Of a stretch of 10,280 nt of DNA, positions 1,283 to 10,280 are shown in pieces; position 1 is the stretch's first letter, and each line of letters opens with the position of its first letter. The stretch is from a virus (lineage: Duplodnaviria > Heunggongvirae > Uroviricota > Caudoviricetes), in the IMG/VR virus record IMGVR_UViG_2690316323_000007; one strand, given 5' to 3'. The position numbers and the translations under genes are program-made. Below the pieces are notes generated by a model, which saw nothing but the letters and a program-made list of their open reading frames with translations, was not told where the DNA came from and ran no database searches.

Positions 1283-1975
1283 TCAGAAGAACTCTGCTTT
1301 GTCGTTGATGTACTCCGCGTGCGTCTGGATATCACGCAGGCATTTGCTCACACCAACGATGTAGCAGAACATGGTGGTCAGCTCCGCCGCCGCGCCCGAT
1401 ACGTCGTGCCCGTCTTCCTGTAACTGGTTCAGCAGATTCATCAGCAGTGAGTTCTCCGTCAGGCCGAGAACACCAGACGGAGAATGAATCAGGCTACGGT
1501 AGCCGGGCTTCAGCGGGGCGCTGTAGGTTTTGTTCTCTATCTTCATTGCCTGCATCACTGCTGATGCTGTGGCGTTGGCTACCTGGTCGGCAACCATCTT
1601 TATGCGTTCTTCCTGCGGGAGCGAGTTTTTAATGTAACTTCCGGTGCGGCGGATCTGAGGAAGAACCTCACCTGTAACCCATTCAAGAAATCTGAATGCT
1701 CTCGTTCCCTCAGTCATTGCCTCTTTGCAACGCAGAATAAGGATGTAGAGACCTGATTCTGAAACGATGGATAGTTCTTGTATTCCACCAGGGGTCTGTA
1801 TTGAATACAGCCCCTTTTTGTTCCAGCCTTTTTTATCAAGTTTTCTCGCTTGTGTAACATCAATATTCAAAGCATTGCACACATCTTTGGTGACAAACCA
1901 AGGTTCTCCGTCAATCATGAACATACGGATCTGGCAGGATGACTCAAAGGAAAAGATGGAAGGTTTGGTATTCAT
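1283..1975 (-). CDS. Bro-N domain protein (antirepressor-like) with a C-terminal domain that is paralogous to the 85-aa protein at 3359..3616
   Basis: Six-frame ORF 1283..2020 trimmed to the internal ATG (1975..1973 on minus), which has an RBS (AAGGTGA) about 6 nt upstream. The N-terminal half matches the Bro-N pattern (FSFESSCQIRMFMIDGEPWFVTKDVCNALNI...GLYILILRCKEAMTEGTRAFRFLEWVTGEVLPQIRRTG). The C-terminal ~70 aa align with the small protein at 3359..3616. Confidence 0.85.
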   Translation of the reverse strand: MNTKPSIFSFESSCQIRMFMIDGEPWFVTKDVCNALNIDVTQARKLDKKGWNKKGLYSIQTPGGIQELSIVSESGLYILILRCKEAMTEGTRAFRFLEWVTGEVLPQIRRTGSYIKNSLPQEERIKMVADQVANATASAVMQAMKIENKTYSAPLKPGYRSLIHSPSGVLGLTENSLLMNLLNQLQEDGHDVSGAAAELTTMFCYIVGVSKCLRDIQTHAEYINDKAEFF

Positions 1976-2001
1976 GGCGATCACCTTTGTAGTTAGGTTA
2001 A

Positions 2002-2034
2002 TCACCACCGCTGAGACCAATCAGATGGTGGTGA
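2002..2034. promoter_or_regulatory. Inverted repeat TCACCACC-N17-GGTGGTGA in the Bro-N gene upstream region; candidate operator
   Basis: Perfect 8-bp arms at 2002-2009 and 2027-2034, located about 27-60 bp upstream of the Bro-N start codon on the minus strand. Function is inferred from position only. Confidence 0.3.
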
Positions 2035-2335: not shown

Positions 2336-2365
2336 TTGCCAGTATGCGTATACTTTCGATAGAAT
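2336..2365 (+). promoter_or_regulatory. Candidate sigma70 promoter for the two-gene operon (TTGCCA-18 nt-TAGAAT)
   Basis: -35-like TTGCCA at 2336-2341 and -10-like TAGAAT at 2360-2365 with an 18-nt spacer, about 55 bp upstream of the ATG at 2419. Confidence 0.45.
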
Positions 2366-2418
2366 GTTTACCCTAGAGGTAGTTGGGGGGGCCCGTGAAC
2401 ACGAAGAGAGCTACAGTA

Positions 2419-2838
2419 ATGCAGCATTTGAGGAAATCAGAAAAAAATAAAGACCATGAAATATTGAGTAAGGCCATTGTTCGGGCTTCCAATAATACTG
2501 TTATACCTCATGCTGAAGAGACTGGACAGAAATTTCTTATTCGGTATTTCACTGAAAATAGTGCAGTTGAGGAGATTTTAAAACATCAGGGAGGGGAATT
2601 TAAATGTGGAAAACTGGCAGATTATGTTCGTCGTGAAACGTCTGAACAAGAAGTATATTATGCTGATATTAATCATAAGTCAGGTGTGAAAATTGTAATA
2701 GGCTATTACACAACTCCCAAAAATGTTATGCATGAGGTCCCAAAGATGTCCGTCGAGAAATCTCATGCAATCTCGCGCAGGATGTTTGCACGCACTGCCG
2801 AAGATATGGCTCAGGAGCTCTACGACGATGCTGAATAA
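2419..2838 (+). CDS. Hypothetical protein (139 aa), first gene of a translationally coupled pair; candidate antitoxin/partner of the downstream gene
   Basis: ORF 2383..2838; start assigned to ATG 2419, which has an RBS-like AAGAGAG about 9 nt upstream (alternatives: GTG 2395, TTG 2383). No family recognised by eye; acidic C-terminus (ELYDDAE). Its stop TAA (2836-2838) overlaps the downstream start inside the string ATGCTGAATAA. Confidence 0.7.
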   Translation: MQHLRKSEKNKDHEILSKAIVRASNNTVIPHAEETGQKFLIRYFTENSAVEEILKHQGGEFKCGKLADYVRRETSEQEVYYADINHKSGVKIVIGYYTTPKNVMHEVPKMSVEKSHAISRRMFARTAEDMAQELYDDAE

Positions 2839-3334
2839 ATTCCAGGGGTTGGTTCACCCTGGAATTTTTGGGAAGGACCCTGAGCTAATACCTATCAAAA
2901 ACGCGTTCATAGATCACTGGCGCTACGGTCATCATAAGGATTTCGGAAAGGACACTCTGTTTCGGGATCCACCGAAAGAGATGCTGGAATATCACATACG
3001 CCACGTTCACGTAAACATCGGAAACTATACTGACAAGTTTGGTGAGAGCGGTACGGAACAATGCTGGAAAAACTGGGCATCCGGGAAGAAAGACAAGACC
3101 ACCAACAAGCATAAAAAAATACCAACCAGTGATGTGTATGTGATTTATCTTGTAACGTCTGAGCGACATGCGTTTCTTCTGGATTACTGGGATGAGCCAG
3201 CACACAAAAAAGTAGAAATTGACGAACAAAAACAAAAACTTCTTGTCGAGTGTGACAGAATTTTGCGGCTGAAAAATTTAGAATCCATGCCGCGCGATGC
3301 AAGTTTGTGGGACCCGGAATTTTACGACTGTTAA
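2828..3334 (+). CDS. Hypothetical protein (168 aa), second gene of the pair; weak resemblance to YafO-family type II toxins (tentative)
   Basis: ORF 2723..3334 trimmed to ATG 2828, which overlaps the upstream stop by 11 nt. Recalled YafO-like features: FGKD/FGRD-type motifs (IFGKDPE, DFGKDTLFRDPP), HIRHVHVNIGN, and a C-terminal block VYVIYLVTSERHAFLLDYWDEPAHKK. Confidence refers to the CDS call; the family assignment alone is about 0.4. Confidence 0.7.
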   Translation: MLNKFQGLVHPGIFGKDPELIPIKNAFIDHWRYGHHKDFGKDTLFRDPPKEMLEYHIRHVHVNIGNYTDKFGESGTEQCWKNWASGKKDKTTNKHKKIPTSDVYVIYLVTSERHAFLLDYWDEPAHKKVEIDEQKQKLLVECDRILRLKNLESMPRDASLWDPEFYDC

Positions 3335-3335
3335 T

Positions 3336-3360
3336 GGCCGCTCTTGCGGCCTTTAAATTT
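3336..3360 (+). terminator. Candidate rho-independent terminator after the two-gene operon (GGCCGC-tctt-GCGGCC followed by TTTAAATTT)
   Basis: Perfect 6-bp GC stem (3336-3341 / 3346-3351) with a 4-nt loop and a T-rich tail, sitting between the convergent stop codons at 3334 and 3359. Confidence 0.45.
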
Positions 3361-3616
3361 ACCGGGTTTGTTTTCGTAATTGTTCGGCACAATAGTCGAG
3401 ATGTGTTTGCAGATCCCGCATAGACATCTGTGAGCTGGTGACGTAGTTAATCAGTGCAGTCAGTTCGGCAAGTGGGCCATCGACATTAAATCCATCCTTA
3501 TCGAGATCCCGGAGTAATTTCATCAAGTGCGATCCCTCCACCAGTGACCTGACGCCTCCCGGCGTGTGAATCCTTTCGGTAAATCCGTCTTCCAGTGGAT
3601 AGTGATACTGCTGCAT
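3359..3616 (-). CDS. Small protein (85 aa), stand-alone paralog of the Bro-N protein C-terminal domain; predicted SOS-regulated
   Basis: ORF 3359..3634 trimmed to the ATG at 3616 (MQQYHYP...), which has an RBS GGAGAAG about 7 nt upstream; the ATG at 3634 lies inside that RBS. Shares about 40% identity by eye with residues ~160-231 of the 1283..1975 protein (IH[ST]P.GV..L.E.S.LM.LL..L..DG..V.G..AELT...Y......RD[IL]QTH). A LexA box sits 20 bp upstream. Confidence 0.7.
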   Translation of the reverse strand: MQQYHYPLEDGFTERIHTPGGVRSLVEGSHLMKLLRDLDKDGFNVDGPLAELTALINYVTSSQMSMRDLQTHLDYCAEQLRKQTR

Positions 3617-3635: not shown

Positions 3636-3655
3636 AACTGTATATTTATACAGTA
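3636..3655. promoter_or_regulatory. LexA (SOS) box: AACTGTATATTTATACAGTA
   Basis: Matches the E. coli LexA consensus TACTGTATATATATACAGTA at 18 of 20 positions, with both CTGT and ACAG half-sites intact and 8-bp spacing. Lies immediately upstream of the minus-strand small gene (start 3616) and within the divergent region shared with the tail fiber gene. Confidence 0.75.
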
Positions 3656-3691
3656 TCAAATAATTTGTTTGCTATCCAGCACGTTTTGCAA

Positions 3692-3758
3692 ATTACCTGA
3701 AAGGTAATATCTGTTCGTATTCACACCCTTTCTATCCATATGTGGTTTTTCAGGTAAT
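3692..3758. promoter_or_regulatory. Cluster of GGTAAT half-sites upstream of the tail fiber gene (palindrome ATTACC-tgaaa-GGTAAT plus a further AGGTAATA copy)
   Basis: Palindrome at 3692-3708; AGGTAATA repeated at 3702-3709 and 3752-3759; TACCTGAAA (3694-3702) is the reverse complement of TTTCAGGTA (3748-3756). No good sigma70 -35/-10 pair is apparent for the tail fiber gene. Confidence 0.35.
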
Positions 3759-3811
3759 AGAATAACCAGATATGCGGCGCAACGGGTGCTGCGACTATCT
3801 GGAGATTTAAC

Positions 3812-6787
3812 ATGACGGTCTCAACCGAAGTTGACCACAACGAATACACAGGTAACGGCGTTACGACATCATTTCCGTATACCTTTAGGGTTTTCAAGGA
3901 ATCTGATCTGGCAGTACAGGTGGTTGACCTTGACGAAAATATCGCTGTGCTGGCTCTTGATACTGATTACACTGTCACTGGGGCTGGTGGATATAATGGC
4001 GGTAATGTAATTCTGTCGAAGGCGTTAGCTAACGGTTATCAGATTTCTATATCACGAGAGCTACCGGTTACGCAGGAAACTGATCTGCGAAATCAGGGAA
4101 AGTTTTTCGCTGAGGTGCATGAAGACGCGTTAGATAAGCTGACGATGCTGATACAGCAAGTCCGCAGTTGGTTTAGCCTGGCGCTGCGCAAACCATCATT
4201 TGTGGCAAACTATTACGATGCTTTGAATAATTACATCCGCAATTTGCGCGATCCTTCCAAGCCTCAAGATGCAGCTACAAAGAATTATGTTGATAATATT
4301 GTTAATGTGAATATTAACAGGACATTACGGGTTCCAGATAATTTTATTGAACCACTTCCTCCAGTTCATTTACTGGAAGAAACTGTCATTGGTATCGTCA
4401 ATGGTAAACCTATAGGTGTACCTGTGCCTTCTGGCAGTGCCGCAGATGTTCTTCTGCAATTATCTAGCGCAGGAGAAGGAAAAGGAGATGCATTAATTGG
4501 TGTAAGGCAGCCATTTGCCGGGGCTGTAACTATAACTCAGCATGAAAACAATGCTCTTTTCTTAAATGTAAAACAATTCGGAGCAATTGGGGATGGGAAA
4601 TATCATCCATTATCTGAGAGGTTTTCTTCAATTTCTGAAGCAAAATCCTTATATCCTTTTGTTGACTCATTATCTCAGTCAATAGACTGGGCCGCGTGGC
4701 AAGCTGCCATTAACACAGGAAAGGTTATTTATGGTACTGATAATGCGTATGTAATAACGGATACGTTAACACCTGTTTCTGGTGGTGGGATAATTGGTCT
4801 TGGTGTGGGCAAATGGGTCTCTGGATATACTGCAACATTTGCTCCTGATATTACCACAGGGACCACATTCCTGATGTACGGTGTAGGAAATAAAAAATAT
4901 ACTGTAGATTGTGTTTCTAATATGGATGTTAGTGGTGGTGTGGTTTCTAATCCATCTTCCGAAGACCCGTATACAACAACGGCACCTGCGTCATCATATG
5001 ATTTATTGGATTTTACTAACGGTGATGCTAATGGGGCTACAAGAGCCACGCTTAAACCATTCTCTGCCGCAATATTGATGCCAGAGACAGGATGTGTTCG
5101 CCTTGAGAACTTTCGTATTGTTCCATATTTCAATGGGCTGGATGGTTATAAAGACATTGCAAATACCGGTCTTGGCGATGAGTGGGATGTAGGTATTTGG
5201 TCACGTGCGTCTTTTGGCAATGAATACCGCAATTTGCAGGTGGTTGGATACTGGCGCAAGACGGCACTTTTAAAAACGAACATTCCTGTATCTGGCACGC
5301 TGGCCGCTCAGGGCGAGGATGAAAACTATTATCACTGTAGATTCCAGGGATTCAAGGGTGTTTCGATCCGCGCCCATGATGTATTCCGAATTACAGCGGT
5401 AACGTCCAGCACTATCGAAATCCCATGGTCATCAAGCCACACCTTCGAAACGTCCGGGGTTTTAAGATCGGGAGGCAGGAATTTCACTTATTCAGGATTA
5501 TCCGTATCCGGTGATAAGTTAGTATTTACTGGAGTGTCTAACGCTTCTGAGGCAACAGTAGGTTCTACTATACGGCGAAATGACATAGATAACTTTGGTA
5601 TGGCGGGAACGCAATTTTTCGATTGCTACATTACCAGCCTGTATCACCACACACATCTGCTTGCCACATCGCAATACCTGTCTCAGCCATTCAGCCGGCC
5701 ATCAGAGTGTATGGAGGTTTCAGGGGAACCAGTTCGCGGTGTACAGGTACATGCAGGAACCATTCAGGGATGGGATGATGTTCTTATTCATCTGCATGAC
5801 TGTGGAAATATGAACTTTTACAGTACATATTTCGAAAGCCAGCCAGCATATGTAACTATAAATGGTGGTAATGCTATTGGTTATGGAGCACGTATGATAG
5901 CTTCCAGGCAATCAACAAGCTCATTACCATATGCAGCAGGGAATACTCGAGTGCTTAGAATGGTCGGGTGCTCTGAAGGCAATGGCGTTGACTGGGGTCC
6001 TGTATTTAACAACTATACAGGAGGAAGATATAATTCTGGAGACGGTGTATTTAACCCCCGCGATGCATTTGTAGACCATAAATCTCTTCCTGAGCAGTCA
6101 GGAGGTGAGTCAAGACTCGTATCACAAAAAGGAAATGCCAGAGTAGTATGTGGTGTTGGTAAAACTGTACTGCTTGGACCAACTTCAGGAGATTGTAATT
6201 TACAGAGTAATACTGGAAGTTTAAATATTAGAAGTGGGATAAGAGTAAGAATCGGTCACGCTGATGGAACAGACTGGTGGTTGGCAGATGCTAATAAAAT
6301 AGCTCCTGTTGATGATAATGTTAAAGCTATTGGACAGCCATCAAACAGATGCTCTGTTATCTATGCAGGAACCGGGTCAATCAATACGTCAGATGAAACT
6401 CTTAAAACAAGATATGATATTCTTAATGCAGAGCGTGATGCCGCTATTGAAATAAAGTCAGTCATCTATAAATTTAAATTTAATGACTCAATTAATCACA
6501 AAGGAATTGAGTCGTCCAGGTATCATTTTGGCGTTGGCGCTCAAACCGTAGGGGATATTCTTAGAAAGCATGGTTTAAACCCTGAGCAATATGCTTTTTG
6601 GTGTTACGATGAATGGCCTGACGTATGGGATGAAGAGGTGATAACTGAAGAGAGCACAGATCCTGATACAGGTGAGAAAATTTATTCTCAATATAAAACA
6701 GGAGATATGATTCTTGTAAAAAAAGCAGGAGGACGCTACGGAATTCGTTATGACGAATTAGCCATGTTTATATTAATGTCAATGTAA
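3812..6787 (+). CDS. Tail fiber / tailspike protein (991 aa) with T7 gp17-like N-terminal adaptor, central pectate-lyase-like beta-helix (putative depolymerase) and C-terminal intramolecular chaperone (peptidase S74-like) domain
   Basis: ATG 3812 with GGAG 7 nt upstream. N-terminus (YTGNGVTTSFPYTFRVFKESDLAVQVVD...DYTVTG) resembles podovirus tail fiber N-terminal domains. Central region has the beta-helix start motif (NVKQFGAIGDGK...DWAAWQAAINTGK). C-terminal ~130 aa (SDETLKTRYDILNAERDAAIEIKSVIYKF...YHFGVGAQTVGDILRKHGL) resembles the self-cleaving chaperone of endosialidase-type tailspikes. Confidence 0.85.
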   Translation: MTVSTEVDHNEYTGNGVTTSFPYTFRVFKESDLAVQVVDLDENIAVLALDTDYTVTGAGGYNGGNVILSKALANGYQISISRELPVTQETDLRNQGKFFAEVHEDALDKLTMLIQQVRSWFSLALRKPSFVANYYDALNNYIRNLRDPSKPQDAATKNYVDNIVNVNINRTLRVPDNFIEPLPPVHLLEETVIGIVNGKPIGVPVPSGSAADVLLQLSSAGEGKGDALIGVRQPFAGAVTITQHENNALFLNVKQFGAIGDGKYHPLSERFSSISEAKSLYPFVDSLSQSIDWAAWQAAINTGKVIYGTDNAYVITDTLTPVSGGGIIGLGVGKWVSGYTATFAPDITTGTTFLMYGVGNKKYTVDCVSNMDVSGGVVSNPSSEDPYTTTAPASSYDLLDFTNGDANGATRATLKPFSAAILMPETGCVRLENFRIVPYFNGLDGYKDIANTGLGDEWDVGIWSRASFGNEYRNLQVVGYWRKTALLKTNIPVSGTLAAQGEDENYYHCRFQGFKGVSIRAHDVFRITAVTSSTIEIPWSSSHTFETSGVLRSGGRNFTYSGLSVSGDKLVFTGVSNASEATVGSTIRRNDIDNFGMAGTQFFDCYITSLYHHTHLLATSQYLSQPFSRPSECMEVSGEPVRGVQVHAGTIQGWDDVLIHLHDCGNMNFYSTYFESQPAYVTINGGNAIGYGARMIASRQSTSSLPYAAGNTRVLRMVGCSEGNGVDWGPVFNNYTGGRYNSGDGVFNPRDAFVDHKSLPEQSGGESRLVSQKGNARVVCGVGKTVLLGPTSGDCNLQSNTGSLNIRSGIRVRIGHADGTDWWLADANKIAPVDDNVKAIGQPSNRCSVIYAGTGSINTSDETLKTRYDILNAERDAAIEIKSVIYKFKFNDSINHKGIESSRYHFGVGAQTVGDILRKHGLNPEQYAFWCYDEWPDVWDEEVITEESTDPDTGEKIYSQYKTGDMILVKKAGGRYGIRYDELAMFILMSM

Positions 6788-7080: not shown

Positions 7081-7109
7081 TTGACCATCGCGAATTGGAT
7101 TGGTAATAT
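7081..7109 (+). promoter_or_regulatory. Strong sigma70-like promoter upstream of the lysis cassette (TTGACC-17 nt-TGgTAATAT, extended -10)
   Basis: -35 TTGACC at 7081-7086, 17-nt spacer, -10 TAATAT at 7104-7109 preceded by TG at 7101-7102. Located about 85 bp upstream of the first lysis gene. Confidence 0.55.
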
Positions 7110-7120
7110 TGGGTAACAAA

Positions 7121-7136
7121 AAACCATAAATGGTTT
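7121..7136. promoter_or_regulatory. Perfect 16-bp palindrome AAACCATAAATGGTTT just downstream of the predicted transcription start; candidate operator
   Basis: Arms AAACCAT (7121-7127) and ATGGTTT (7130-7136), separated by AA. Sits between the promoter -10 and the RBS AGGAGG (7161-7166). Confidence 0.4.
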
Positions 7137-9072: not shown

Positions 9073-9109
9073 CACTCAATTAGTTATGATTGTCGTAAAT
9101 AATTGAGTG
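9073..9109. repeat. 10-bp inverted repeat CACTCAATTA-N17-TAATTGAGTG in the junction region between the lysis cassette and the flanking genes
   Basis: Perfect arms at 9073-9082 and 9100-9109. Could be a protein-binding site or part of the island boundary; no function can be assigned from sequence alone. Confidence 0.35.
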
Positions 9110-9141
9110 GGAATGATTTGAACCCTGTACTATGAATGAAC

Positions 9142-9171
9142 AAAACCCTCTGTTACTACAGAGGGTTTTTT
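9142..9171. terminator. Bidirectional rho-independent terminator (AAAACCCTCTG-ttacta-CAGAGGGTTTTTT)
   Basis: 7-bp GC-rich stem flanked by an A-tract upstream and a T-tract downstream. Lies about 40 bp beyond the stop of the minus-strand gene 9210..9749 and about 150 bp after the Rz stop. Confidence 0.7.
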
Positions 9172-9209
9172 ATACTCACGAATCATAGGCTTGAAGTTAC
9201 TGACATCGC

Positions 9210-9749
9210 TTAGTTAAACCAGCTGTCCGATTTGTTCTCTTCTGCTTTACCCACGCTTTTCATCAGATCGCGACCGCCTTCAGTCATATTTCTGTTTGCG
9301 TCAGCTTCAGATTGCACCACATCGGTTTGCGCAGCTTTGTGCTTCAGTTCCTGATCGATAAATTCGTTTTCGCGCTTAACGCGGGCTTCTTCTTTCGCCA
9401 GCGCCAGTTTTTGCTTCTGAATCTCTAAGCTACGTAGCTCATCTTCATAACTTTGATCGCGTTTTTTGTCCGCAGTGGCTTCGGCGTCCAGTTTATCCTG
9501 ACGAGCTTTCTTATTCGCTGCTGCCGTTGCCGCTCTTTTATTAGCCGCGGCCTGGGCGTTTGCGCGACGTTGCTTCTCTTGCTGGATTTCCCTGTTGCGC
9601 TCCGCGACCCATTCGTCATGCTGCCTTTGCTCTTCATTTTTACCTTGCTGTTCCGCTTCTGCGACAGCCGAGAGTTGATCCTGCAATGATGAGGCGATAG
9701 CCGGATAGCTTAAGGAGGCTAAGATGGCGCAAAGAAAAACTTTCTTCAT
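9210..9749 (-). CDS. Secreted (periplasmic) charged, Ala/Gln/Lys-rich protein with N-terminal signal peptide, 179 aa; probable chromosomal gene
   Basis: Signal peptide MKKVFLCAILASLSYPAIASS; strong RBS AGGAGGAG immediately upstream; low-complexity coiled-coil-like body. Length and context are reminiscent of the enterobacterial yfgI gene but I cannot confirm identity from memory. Confidence 0.8.
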   Translation of the reverse strand: MKKVFLCAILASLSYPAIASSLQDQLSAVAEAEQQGKNEEQRQHDEWVAERNREIQQEKQRRANAQAAANKRAATAAANKKARQDKLDAEATADKKRDQSYEDELRSLEIQKQKLALAKEEARVKRENEFIDQELKHKAAQTDVVQSEADANRNMTEGGRDLMKSVGKAEENKSDSWFN

Positions 9750-9764
9750 GACTCCTCCTGATTA

Positions 9765-10280
9765 TTAGCTCTTTTCAGGACATTTGGTATTTGGCTGAAT
9801 ACGCGTTTCGTTATACGTCGTGGTAATAACAACGGCTAAACCTGTCGTAAACTGGCACTCTTTACCCACCTGGGTGGAGGTATACACTTTGGTGCCTTCC
9901 TTATATGTTAAAGAAACACCTTCCACTAAGGTTTTATCATTCACCATAGAACCCGCTGCTGCGCCAACAGCTCCGCCGCCAACTGCACCTGCTGTCGTTC
10001 CGGAATTGCTGCCAGACCCGACGTTGTGGCCGATAACACCGCCAGCGACAGCGCCAATAAGCGCGCCGAAGGCTTGTGCGTTCCGTTTATTTTGGGCGTT
10101 GTCTACGGCAACTTTTGCGGGAAGAATGGAAATAATATTAACGGTTTTAGTTTCTTGTTTGGTATTCAGTTGATCGGTTTGATAAACATCGGCGGCATGA
10201 TCATCAGCATTTGACTGGCATCCTGCCAGAGTAAATGACGCTAACATTGCCACAGGCAGAAGACATTTTTTTAATTTCAT
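9765..10280 (-). CDS. Lipoprotein with glycine-zipper motif, 171 aa; probable chromosomal gene; start codon at window end
   Basis: Lipoprotein signal with lipobox LAGC (MKLKKCLLPVAMLASFTLAGCQ) and a Gly/Ala-rich zipper segment (GALIGAVAGGVIGHNVGSGSNSGTTAGAVGGGAVGAAAG). Its stop lies 15 bp upstream of the next gene's start, suggesting an operon. Reminiscent of yfgH-type lipoproteins, unverified. Confidence 0.8.
   Translation of the reverse strand: MKLKKCLLPVAMLASFTLAGCQSNADDHAADVYQTDQLNTKQETKTVNIISILPAKVAVDNAQNKRNAQAFGALIGAVAGGVIGHNVGSGSNSGTTAGAVGGGAVGAAAGSMVNDKTLVEGVSLTYKEGTKVYTSTQVGKECQFTTGLAVVITTTYNETRIQPNTKCPEKS

Follow-up and report, generated by a model that had tools for sequence, protein, structure and literature searches.

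Three copies of the hexamer GGTAAT precede the tail fiber gene in a 10,280-nt stretch of DNA from a tailed phage (Caudoviricetes; IMG/VR record IMGVR_UViG_2690316323_000007), and this whole stretch is referred to as the window hereafter. The initial annotation regarded these copies as half-sites for an activator or a repressor dedicated to that gene. Two questions are raised by this locus: which protein would recognize the sites, and whether such a protein would serve the tail fiber gene alone. The reading that we favor, with a probability of roughly 0.78, is that the palindrome formed by two of the copies (3692–3708) is a predicted operator of the phage repressor Rep, which would keep the tail fiber gene off in lysogens.

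The GGTAAT sites and the prophage remnant that carries them

In the window, ATTACC at 3692–3697 and GGTAAT at 3703–3708 form a perfect palindrome with 6-bp arms and a 5-bp spacer. A third copy at 3753–3758 lies downstream within a repeat: the 8-mer AGGTAATA occurs at 3702–3709 and again at 3752–3759, with an offset of exactly 50 bp (the stretch covering the array reads ...ttttgcaaATTACCtgaaaGGTAATatctgttcgtattcacaccctttctatccatatgtggtttttcaGGTAATagaataacc...). This is the arrangement that the initial annotation had described, and its expectation that the motif would exceed the background frequency was also borne out. GGTAAT occurs 14 times on the two strands of the window, as compared with 5.06 ± 2.09 times in shuffled sequences, none of which reached 14 (200 shuffles). 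Three GGTAAT copies inside 67 bp were seen in none of 1000 dinucleotide shuffles, and the perfect ATTACC-N5-GGTAAT palindrome in one of 1000; with up to two mismatches allowed, this palindrome is present five times in the window, where 0.40 copies are expected. The three copies, however, are not equivalent: two of them make up a complete operator, while the third has no TTACC partner arm 5 nt upstream and lies on the edge of a −10 element. The features that define the locus are as follows.

3362–3616, minus strand: ant, the gene for the small antirepressor by which Rep is inactivated (phmmer match to PDB 5D50 chain E)
3692–3708, unstranded: ATTACCTGAAAGGTAAT, predicted operator of the Rep type, which fits the 17-bp family consensus perfectly
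3753–3758, plus strand: lone half-site GGTAAT, the same as the right arm of the operator; GGTAATA (3753–3759) is invariant in nine of nine aligned regions
3812–6787, plus strand: tail fiber (tailspike) gene, the product of which has an N-terminus common to the phiV10 and epsilon15 tail fiber proteins
9102–9118: attR core ATTGAGTGGGAATGATT, followed by host yfgI/yfgH (window 9102–10280)

The window is the remnant, roughly 9 kb, of a prophage of the phiV10/epsilon15 type (Uetakevirus). The stretch 3300–4300 matches 23 phage records, and all of the taxonomically identified ones that were checked are Uetakevirus. The ORF at 1–1251 encodes an integrase that is 99% identical to that of phiV10. This int gene directly adjoins the 3′ end of a gene for a BroN-domain protein, which in intact phages follows the virion genes; therefore, approximately 30 kb have been deleted, and rep, cro, and the replication, packaging, head, and tail genes are absent. 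In no complete E. coli genome of our collection was the int/BroN junction found in one piece. At its right end, the window contains the lysis cassette and the att core, the sequence of which is that given in PMC9782041, and then the host genes yfgI/yfgH. Because rep (and cro) have been lost, the operator at 3692–3708 is orphaned in this remnant, and it can have a function only if Rep comes from another Uetakevirus prophage. The 176-bp spacer between ant and the tail fiber gene is present in 525 of 5426 complete E. coli genomes (about 10%).

The GGTAAT sites are located in this spacer, from which ant and the tail fiber gene diverge. The ant product matches 5D50 chain E, "Anti-repressor protein," over residues 8–90 (phmmer, E = 1.9e-46), and it is 88% identical to the Ant of phage SPC32H (73 of 83 aligned residues). 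As for the BroN-domain protein (1283–2020, minus strand), its C-terminal 74 residues are 43% identical to the whole Ant, and the protein looks like a second, fused antirepressor.

A probable operator family dispersed over Uetakevirus genomes

The motif search in related phages, which the initial annotation had proposed as a check, was performed with the pattern TTACC-N5-GGTAA, up to one mismatch being allowed. The resulting 17-bp repeat occurs 13–18 times per Uetakevirus genome.

phiV10: 14 copies (≤ 1 mismatch), 0.64 expected
epsilon15: 15 copies (≤ 1 mismatch), 0.68 expected
SPC32H: 18 copies (≤ 1 mismatch), 0.74 expected
Tyrion: 15 copies (≤ 1 mismatch)
Klebsiella phage BUCT711: 13 copies (≤ 1 mismatch)

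In an unbiased count of all palindromes with 5-bp arms, TTACC with a 5-bp spacer ranked first in each genome (8–11 perfect copies), while the next unrelated palindrome of this kind has only 2–3 copies per genome. The logo derived from 45 sites reads tATTACC-N5-GGTAATa, in which the A, C, and C of the left arm and the G, G, and T of the right arm are kept in 44–45 of the 45 sites; the operator at 3692–3708 fits the consensus at all 12 arm positions. The window carries two other operator copies.

2242–2258, unstranded: second operator copy TTTACCGCAAAGGTAAT, overlapping the −10 element of the promoter of the leftward BroN-Ant fusion gene
2367–2383, unstranded: third operator copy TTTACCCTAGAGGTAGT, directly after the −10 element of the promoter TTGCCA-18-TAGAAT (2336–2365)

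When mapped onto the annotation tables of phiV10 and epsilon15, the copies are intergenic. The phiV10 site at 87 falls just within the annotated start of terS; this start (41) is probably too far upstream, a homologous ATG being found near 121. Two operators stand before terS, and one each stands before the head genes, the BroN gene, the tail fiber gene, the lysis genes, and int, these positions being conserved; one more is found before p42 and two before p45. In addition, clusters of 2–3 operators occur downstream of rep and between rep and the cro-like gene. These clusters flanking rep are in the classical OR and OL positions, and they were seen in all complete relatives, the window being a deletion remnant that has neither rep nor cro. 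Since the same repeat occurs 13–18 times per genome, mostly between genes, the regulator is not one dedicated to the tail fiber gene. The other part of the initial proposal, namely, that the array is a binding site for a regulator, is supported by the sequence, its conservation, its distribution, and the annotation of epsilon15.

The RefSeq record of epsilon15 (NC_004775) marks seven of the roughly 15 copies as protein_bind "repressor," and these features are predictions. One of them, at 19895–19911 (ATTACCTGTAAGGTAAT), is located between gp19 (= ant) and gp20 (tail fiber). The palindrome in the window is the orthologue of this predicted site: it has the same 17-bp consensus and the same neighbors (LexA box, ant, and tail fiber gene), and the consensus match at the orthologous position was found in the window, epsilon15, and seven other orthologues. 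The same palindrome is also present in the ant–tailspike spacer of SPC32H, at 20013. Thus, the site belongs to an already annotated kind of operator that occurs genome-wide. What the annotation does not cover is the constant distance of −70, the half-site that overlaps the −10 element, and a phased second box; neither the promoter-proximal GGTAAT nor this CCATATRTGG box is marked in the epsilon15 record. Another difference is that the window copy resides in an E. coli prophage remnant without rep.

Several phages are known in which one repressor silences transcription units directly through many dispersed sites: the inverted repeats of phiC31, the C1 operators of P1, and the gp71 stoperators of L5. 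Those of L5 and P1 lack symmetry, and the L5 stoperators lie inside transcribed regions in one orientation. In contrast, the Uetakevirus sites are palindromic, and the mapped copies are intergenic; they are therefore not stoperators in the sense of asymmetric sites inside transcription units that are oriented with transcription. Their closest counterparts are the 17-bp inverted repeats of phiC31, although the repressor families are unrelated. One repressor acting on many operators would explain the silence of each separate late unit in the lysogen.

Two observations on individual copies may be added here. Some operators stand directly after intrinsic terminators (phiV10 87–119, 26870, 33112, and 35070; epsilon15 12–44), and these are the ones before terS, int, p42, and p45; the terS pair, which has no obvious promoter, might form roadblocks to read-through instead of acting at initiation. 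Upstream of the lysis genes of the window (7102–7116), a direct repeat GGTAAT-N4-GGTAA is found at the place where phiV10 and epsilon15 have a TCACC/TTACC-N5-GGTAA palindrome, and the box AACCATAAATGGTT follows 5 nt after it. The first lysis gene likely starts at ATG 7172, not at GTG 7185.

The candidate binder and the layout of the intergenic region

The immunity repressor Rep, of the SPC32H/epsilon15-gp38/phiV10-p40 type, is a strong candidate for the protein that would bind the site. The phiV10 protein p40 is the matching Rep (5D50 chain A, 4e-42). The evidence for the assignment is indirect, though consistent, and it includes two parallels. One is that NLVNRW, in the recognition-helix region of the N-terminal domain, is invariant among Reps that are 43% identical overall, just as the half-site is invariant. 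The other is the occurrence of operator clusters on both sides of rep, which is the OR/OL arrangement. The enterobacterial Reps examined share both the helix and the half-site, so that specificity covariation is not seen within the genus.

Distant relatives of Rep were found by tblastn against a phage collection; two scans of IMG/VR for more divergent ones returned solely copies that were 99–100% identical. The distant repressors have only the N-terminal domain in common with Rep (36–40% identity), their C-termini being LexA-like S24 peptidases, and related repeats occur alongside them. The cI gene of Pseudomonas phage PseuP_224 is flanked by TTACC-N4-GGTAA three times (1907, 2769, and 2808), and the CI gene of Psychrobacter phage pOW20-A by (A/T)TACC-N5-GGTA(T) five times (1380–1444 and 2287–2326), while Moraxella phage Mcat9 has degenerate versions. 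With a common TACC/GGTA core and a different spacing or outer base, the PseuP_224 and pOW20-A operators constitute a natural specificity series for this HTH family.

The biochemistry of Rep is compatible with such a role. According to PMC9638917, Rep is a tetramer that binds palindromic sites, and Ant disassembles and releases it. In PMC9986798, an N-terminal DNA-binding domain, a middle dimerization domain, and a p53-like tetramerization domain are described; two pairs of the middle domains are about 100 Å apart, the DNA-binding pairs point apart like those of DNA-looping repressors, and the structural basis of the repression is called "not extensively characterized." The DNA is bound through the N-terminal HTH domain of Rep, and the tetramerization domain is the part to which Ant binds. 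When the identical Rep of phage ZX5 was overexpressed, the transcripts of holin and endolysin fell by more than 99.9% (PMC9782041). The Rep/Ant switch of SPC32H (PDB 5D4Z and 5D50) resembles the present system in that its Rep is homologous and a LexA box overlaps its ant promoter; the work on it, as described in PMC9638917 and PMC9986798, deals with the protein structure and the switch, not with dispersed late-gene operators. The cro-like protein, which is also highly conserved (76–84% identity), could use the same sites as Rep. The families of phiV10 p55 and of p41, the cro-like protein, carry generic regulator labels only.

Of the host regulators considered (CRP, FNR, IHF, NarL 7-2-7, CpxR, TyrR, PdhR, and others), none is known to have a site that fits TTACC-N5-GGTAA. 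The epsilon15 record marks an IHF site right after the operator, and this stretch is unconserved in the lineage of the window.

The layout of the spacer was examined in nine aligned regions, from the window, phiV10, epsilon15, Tyrion, and prophages of Citrobacter, Erwinia, Superficieibacter, Pseudocitrobacter, and Scandinavium. The mean column identity is 60%, and the conserved footprints follow one another in this order: the start codon and ribosome-binding site of ant, a LexA box, the CTATCCAG block, TTACCT-N4-GGTAATA, approximately 24 unconserved bases, ATnCATAT, GGTAATAgAaT, a GC hairpin, a ribosome-binding site, and the ATG (3812 in the window). Three further features belong to this layout.

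3636–3655, unstranded: LexA (SOS) box AACTGTATATTTATACAGTA, overlapping the ant promoter; 18 of 20 positions match the consensus
3650–3678, minus strand: putative ant promoter, −35 TGGATA (3678–3673), 17-nt spacer, −10 TACTGT (3655–3650)
3735–3763, plus strand: putative tail fiber promoter, −35 TCCATA (3735–3740), 17-nt spacer, −10 TAGAAT (3758–3763)

All three GGTAAT copies are unchanged across the nine regions, which come from several enterobacterial genera, and the operator arms are invariant in each of them. The approximately 24 bp after the operator are unconserved in sequence, yet they contain no indel in any of the nine regions. The CTATCCAG block is almost indel-free, with TCCAG kept in nine regions and the full block in eight. 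The GC hairpin (3777–3789; 4 pairs), in what would be the 5′-UTR of the tail fiber gene, is conserved in eight sequences, among which no compensatory change or covariation was found.

These data bear on the notion that the palindrome is a chance repeat in AT-rich intergenic DNA, or else an RNA hairpin or a terminator. Its 6-bp arms could indeed pair in RNA, and GGTAAT is over-represented across the window as a whole. Such an explanation is nevertheless hardly credible in view of the shuffling result for the cluster and of the arms, which are invariant without compensatory change in the 45 sites and the nine orthologues. The intergenic region also has no T-run, no terminator call, and no Rfam match, and the hairpin or terminator was rejected.

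The LexA consensus is TACTG(TA)5CAGTA. In the box upstream of ant, ACTGTAT and ACA are invariant, and most of the other positions are conserved in at least seven of the nine regions. The ant start is predicted near 3643, and the −10 TACTGT lies within the box. A small Ant homologue and an SOS box overlapping its promoter are thus both present, as in a LexA-controlled Ant module. This divergent promoter beside the site had been omitted from the earlier reading.

The tail fiber gene was initially said to lack a convincing sigma70 promoter. This view should be revised: a conserved, weak promoter of the sigma70 type is predicted, with a start near 3770, and the window copy, TCCATA-17-TAGAAT, falls just below the threshold of the promoter scan. 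Its epsilon15 orthologue, TTCATA-17-TAGAAT, has 9 of 12 matches and is the sole promoter-like hit in that spacer. The T, A, A, and T of the −10 hexamer, which are the key positions of this element, and the CATA of the −35 hexamer are invariant in the nine regions. Two other promoter assignments were rejected: TTGCAA-16-TATCTG, the spacer of which would contain the operator and the hexamers of which are poor and unconserved, and a leftward Rep-controlled promoter to ant with TATTAC as the −10 element, the −35 region of which is unconserved.

The third GGTAAT copy reaches into the −10 hexamer of this promoter from the upstream side. Its GGTAA occupies −17 to −13, and its T is the first base of the −10 hexamer (GGTAA followed by TAGAAT). 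Sigma70 has no need of GGTAA at −17 to −13; nevertheless, the GGTAA on the −10 edge is invariant and identical to the right arm of the operator, with no left arm. In four phages, the head promoter shows this arrangement too (GGTAATA with TAnnnT), while the lysis promoter has no proximal GGTAAT, though its operator is also at −70.

The center of the operator (3700) is at about −70 from the putative tail fiber start and at about −57 from the putative ant start; relative to starts predicted likewise, the operator center is also at −70 at the lysis promoter (phiV10 and epsilon15) and at about −82 at the head promoter. These distances call to mind class I activator sites, at which a regulator contacts the alpha subunit of RNA polymerase, as CRP does at −61.5, −71.5, and −82.5. 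On this view, the late promoters would be activated through the palindrome as an upstream site, and its binder would be the cro-like protein or some other regulator of the phage, which might compete with Rep for the same sequence. The centers at −70, −70, and about −82 are roughly one helical turn apart, the −35 hexamers of the late promoters are poor, the operator–promoter spacing is indel-free in the nine sequences, and the cro-like protein is well conserved. We consider this alternative unlikely, however: the same sequence occurs in or right after core promoters (rep–cro, early-left, 2242, and 2367), which are repressor positions, no activator was found, and the values of −70 and −82 may be several bases off, the starts being predicted. 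A known parallel is p4 of phi29, which activates the late promoter at the divergent A2b/A3 promoters from a site at −82. The likeness lies in a regulator site placed between divergent early-type and late promoters at about −70 to −82; the differences are that p4 activates and that the proteins are unrelated.

The distance to ant admits another reading, in which the operator would mainly serve ant, Rep at about −57 tuning the LexA-controlled promoter, and the tail fiber gene would be controlled only indirectly. The operator begins 13 bp upstream of the putative −35 element of ant, with nearly indel-free spacing, and the paralogous operator at 2242–2258 overlaps the −10 element of BroN-Ant, the other gene of the antirepressor type. 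Against this, the head and lysis units share the operator-to-promoter layout without an ant-like neighbor, and a site at −57 is clear of the ant core promoter, which makes the reading quite improbable. LexA alone is reportedly named as the controller of ant in the 2013 abstract on SPC32H.

A second palindromic box and possible action at a distance

The Rep operator that we favor calls for a mechanism by which a repressor at −70 would silence the tail fiber promoter. In these phages, modules of the opposite orientation (ant in the present case and serotype-conversion genes in relatives) divide the late genes into separate transcription units, and each late unit (head, tail fiber, and lysis) has a weak putative promoter that is preceded by a single predicted Rep operator. 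The operator at 3692–3708 stands between the putative divergent promoters of LexA-controlled ant and of the tail fiber gene. In the lysogen, a Rep tetramer would occupy the palindrome via one pair of DNA-binding domains. The second pair would probably reach either the CCATATGTGG box or the GGTAAT half-site (−17 to −12), so that the tail fiber gene stays silent. This conjectured second contact would be needed because a repressor centered at −70 cannot occlude RNA polymerase alone. Upon DNA damage, LexA would be cleaved, Ant would be made, Rep would be pulled off, and the tail fiber promoter would be freed. The tail fiber promoter would thus be tied to the LexA/Ant/Rep induction switch. The promoter of BroN-Ant (TTGAAA-18-TATTAT; 2286–2257, minus strand) has its −10 element inside the operator at 2242–2258, which suggests that a Rep-repressed second antirepressor would reinforce the induction begun by the LexA-controlled Ant.

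The box mentioned above forms a second family of palindromes, with the consensus AAyCATAT(A/G)TGGTT and the perfect copy AACCATATATGGTT.

3734–3747, unstranded: second box ATCCATATGTGGTT, an imperfect copy of AACCATATATGGTT, overlapping the −35 hexamer and the spacer of the tail fiber promoter
2285–2298 and 7122–7135: the other copies in the window
3305, 20539, 24736, 33132, and 35113: copies in phiV10

ATnCATAT is invariant in the nine-region alignment. CATATNTGG occurs 19 times in phiV10, epsilon15, SPC32H, and Tyrion, and for 16 of these hits an operator-like match (≤ 1 mismatch) starts 22–23, 44–47, or 56 nt before the hit; of the remaining ones, two are hundreds of bases off and one overlaps a match with one mismatch. 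The offsets of the box from the operator start are roughly whole helical turns apart. The box overlaps core promoters, at variable positions. Relative to the predicted starts of different promoters, its center varies from about −18 to −41, and for this reason we rejected CCATATRTGG as a fixed substitute for the −35 element or as a MotA-type activator box. The idea that the second Pfam HTH_3 match of Rep (residues 106–147) reads the box was weakened, this part being a dimerization domain according to PMC9986798.

Tentatively, and with low confidence, we suggest that a composite, helically phased control region consisting of the operator, the second box, and the half-site may exist at each late promoter. 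Such a region may combine a complete Rep operator centered near −70 or −82 with a AACCATATATGGTT-type box in the core promoter, 22, 44–47, or 56 bp from the operator start; at two of the three late promoters, the −10 edge would also carry a lone GGTAAT. A single looping Rep tetramer may connect the distal operator with these proximal elements, or the distal operator may serve for activation as well when Rep has given way to the cro-like protein. If this composite reading is true, one family of sites would set both immunity and the early-to-late timing without a Q-type antiterminator. The −70 spacing, the proximal half-site, and the second box bear in any event on how a tetrameric, looping-type repressor acts at a distance. 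The practical value is modest: phages of the phiV10 and SPC32H types serve as reporter phages, so that knowledge of their Rep-controlled late promoters is of help in engineering.

A minor observation concerns the segment at 2336–3351, which is an insert missing from phiV10 and epsilon15. It contains two ORFs (2383–2838 and about 2834–3334), which belong to phrog_9503 and phrog_1651, both of unknown function, and in which no Pfam or NCBIfam match was found; the second, as judged by eye, presumably resembles a YafO-type toxin. The insert has its own strong promoter (TTGCCA-18-TAGAAT), with the operator at 2367–2383 placed at the start site, and it ends with a terminator at 3336–3351.
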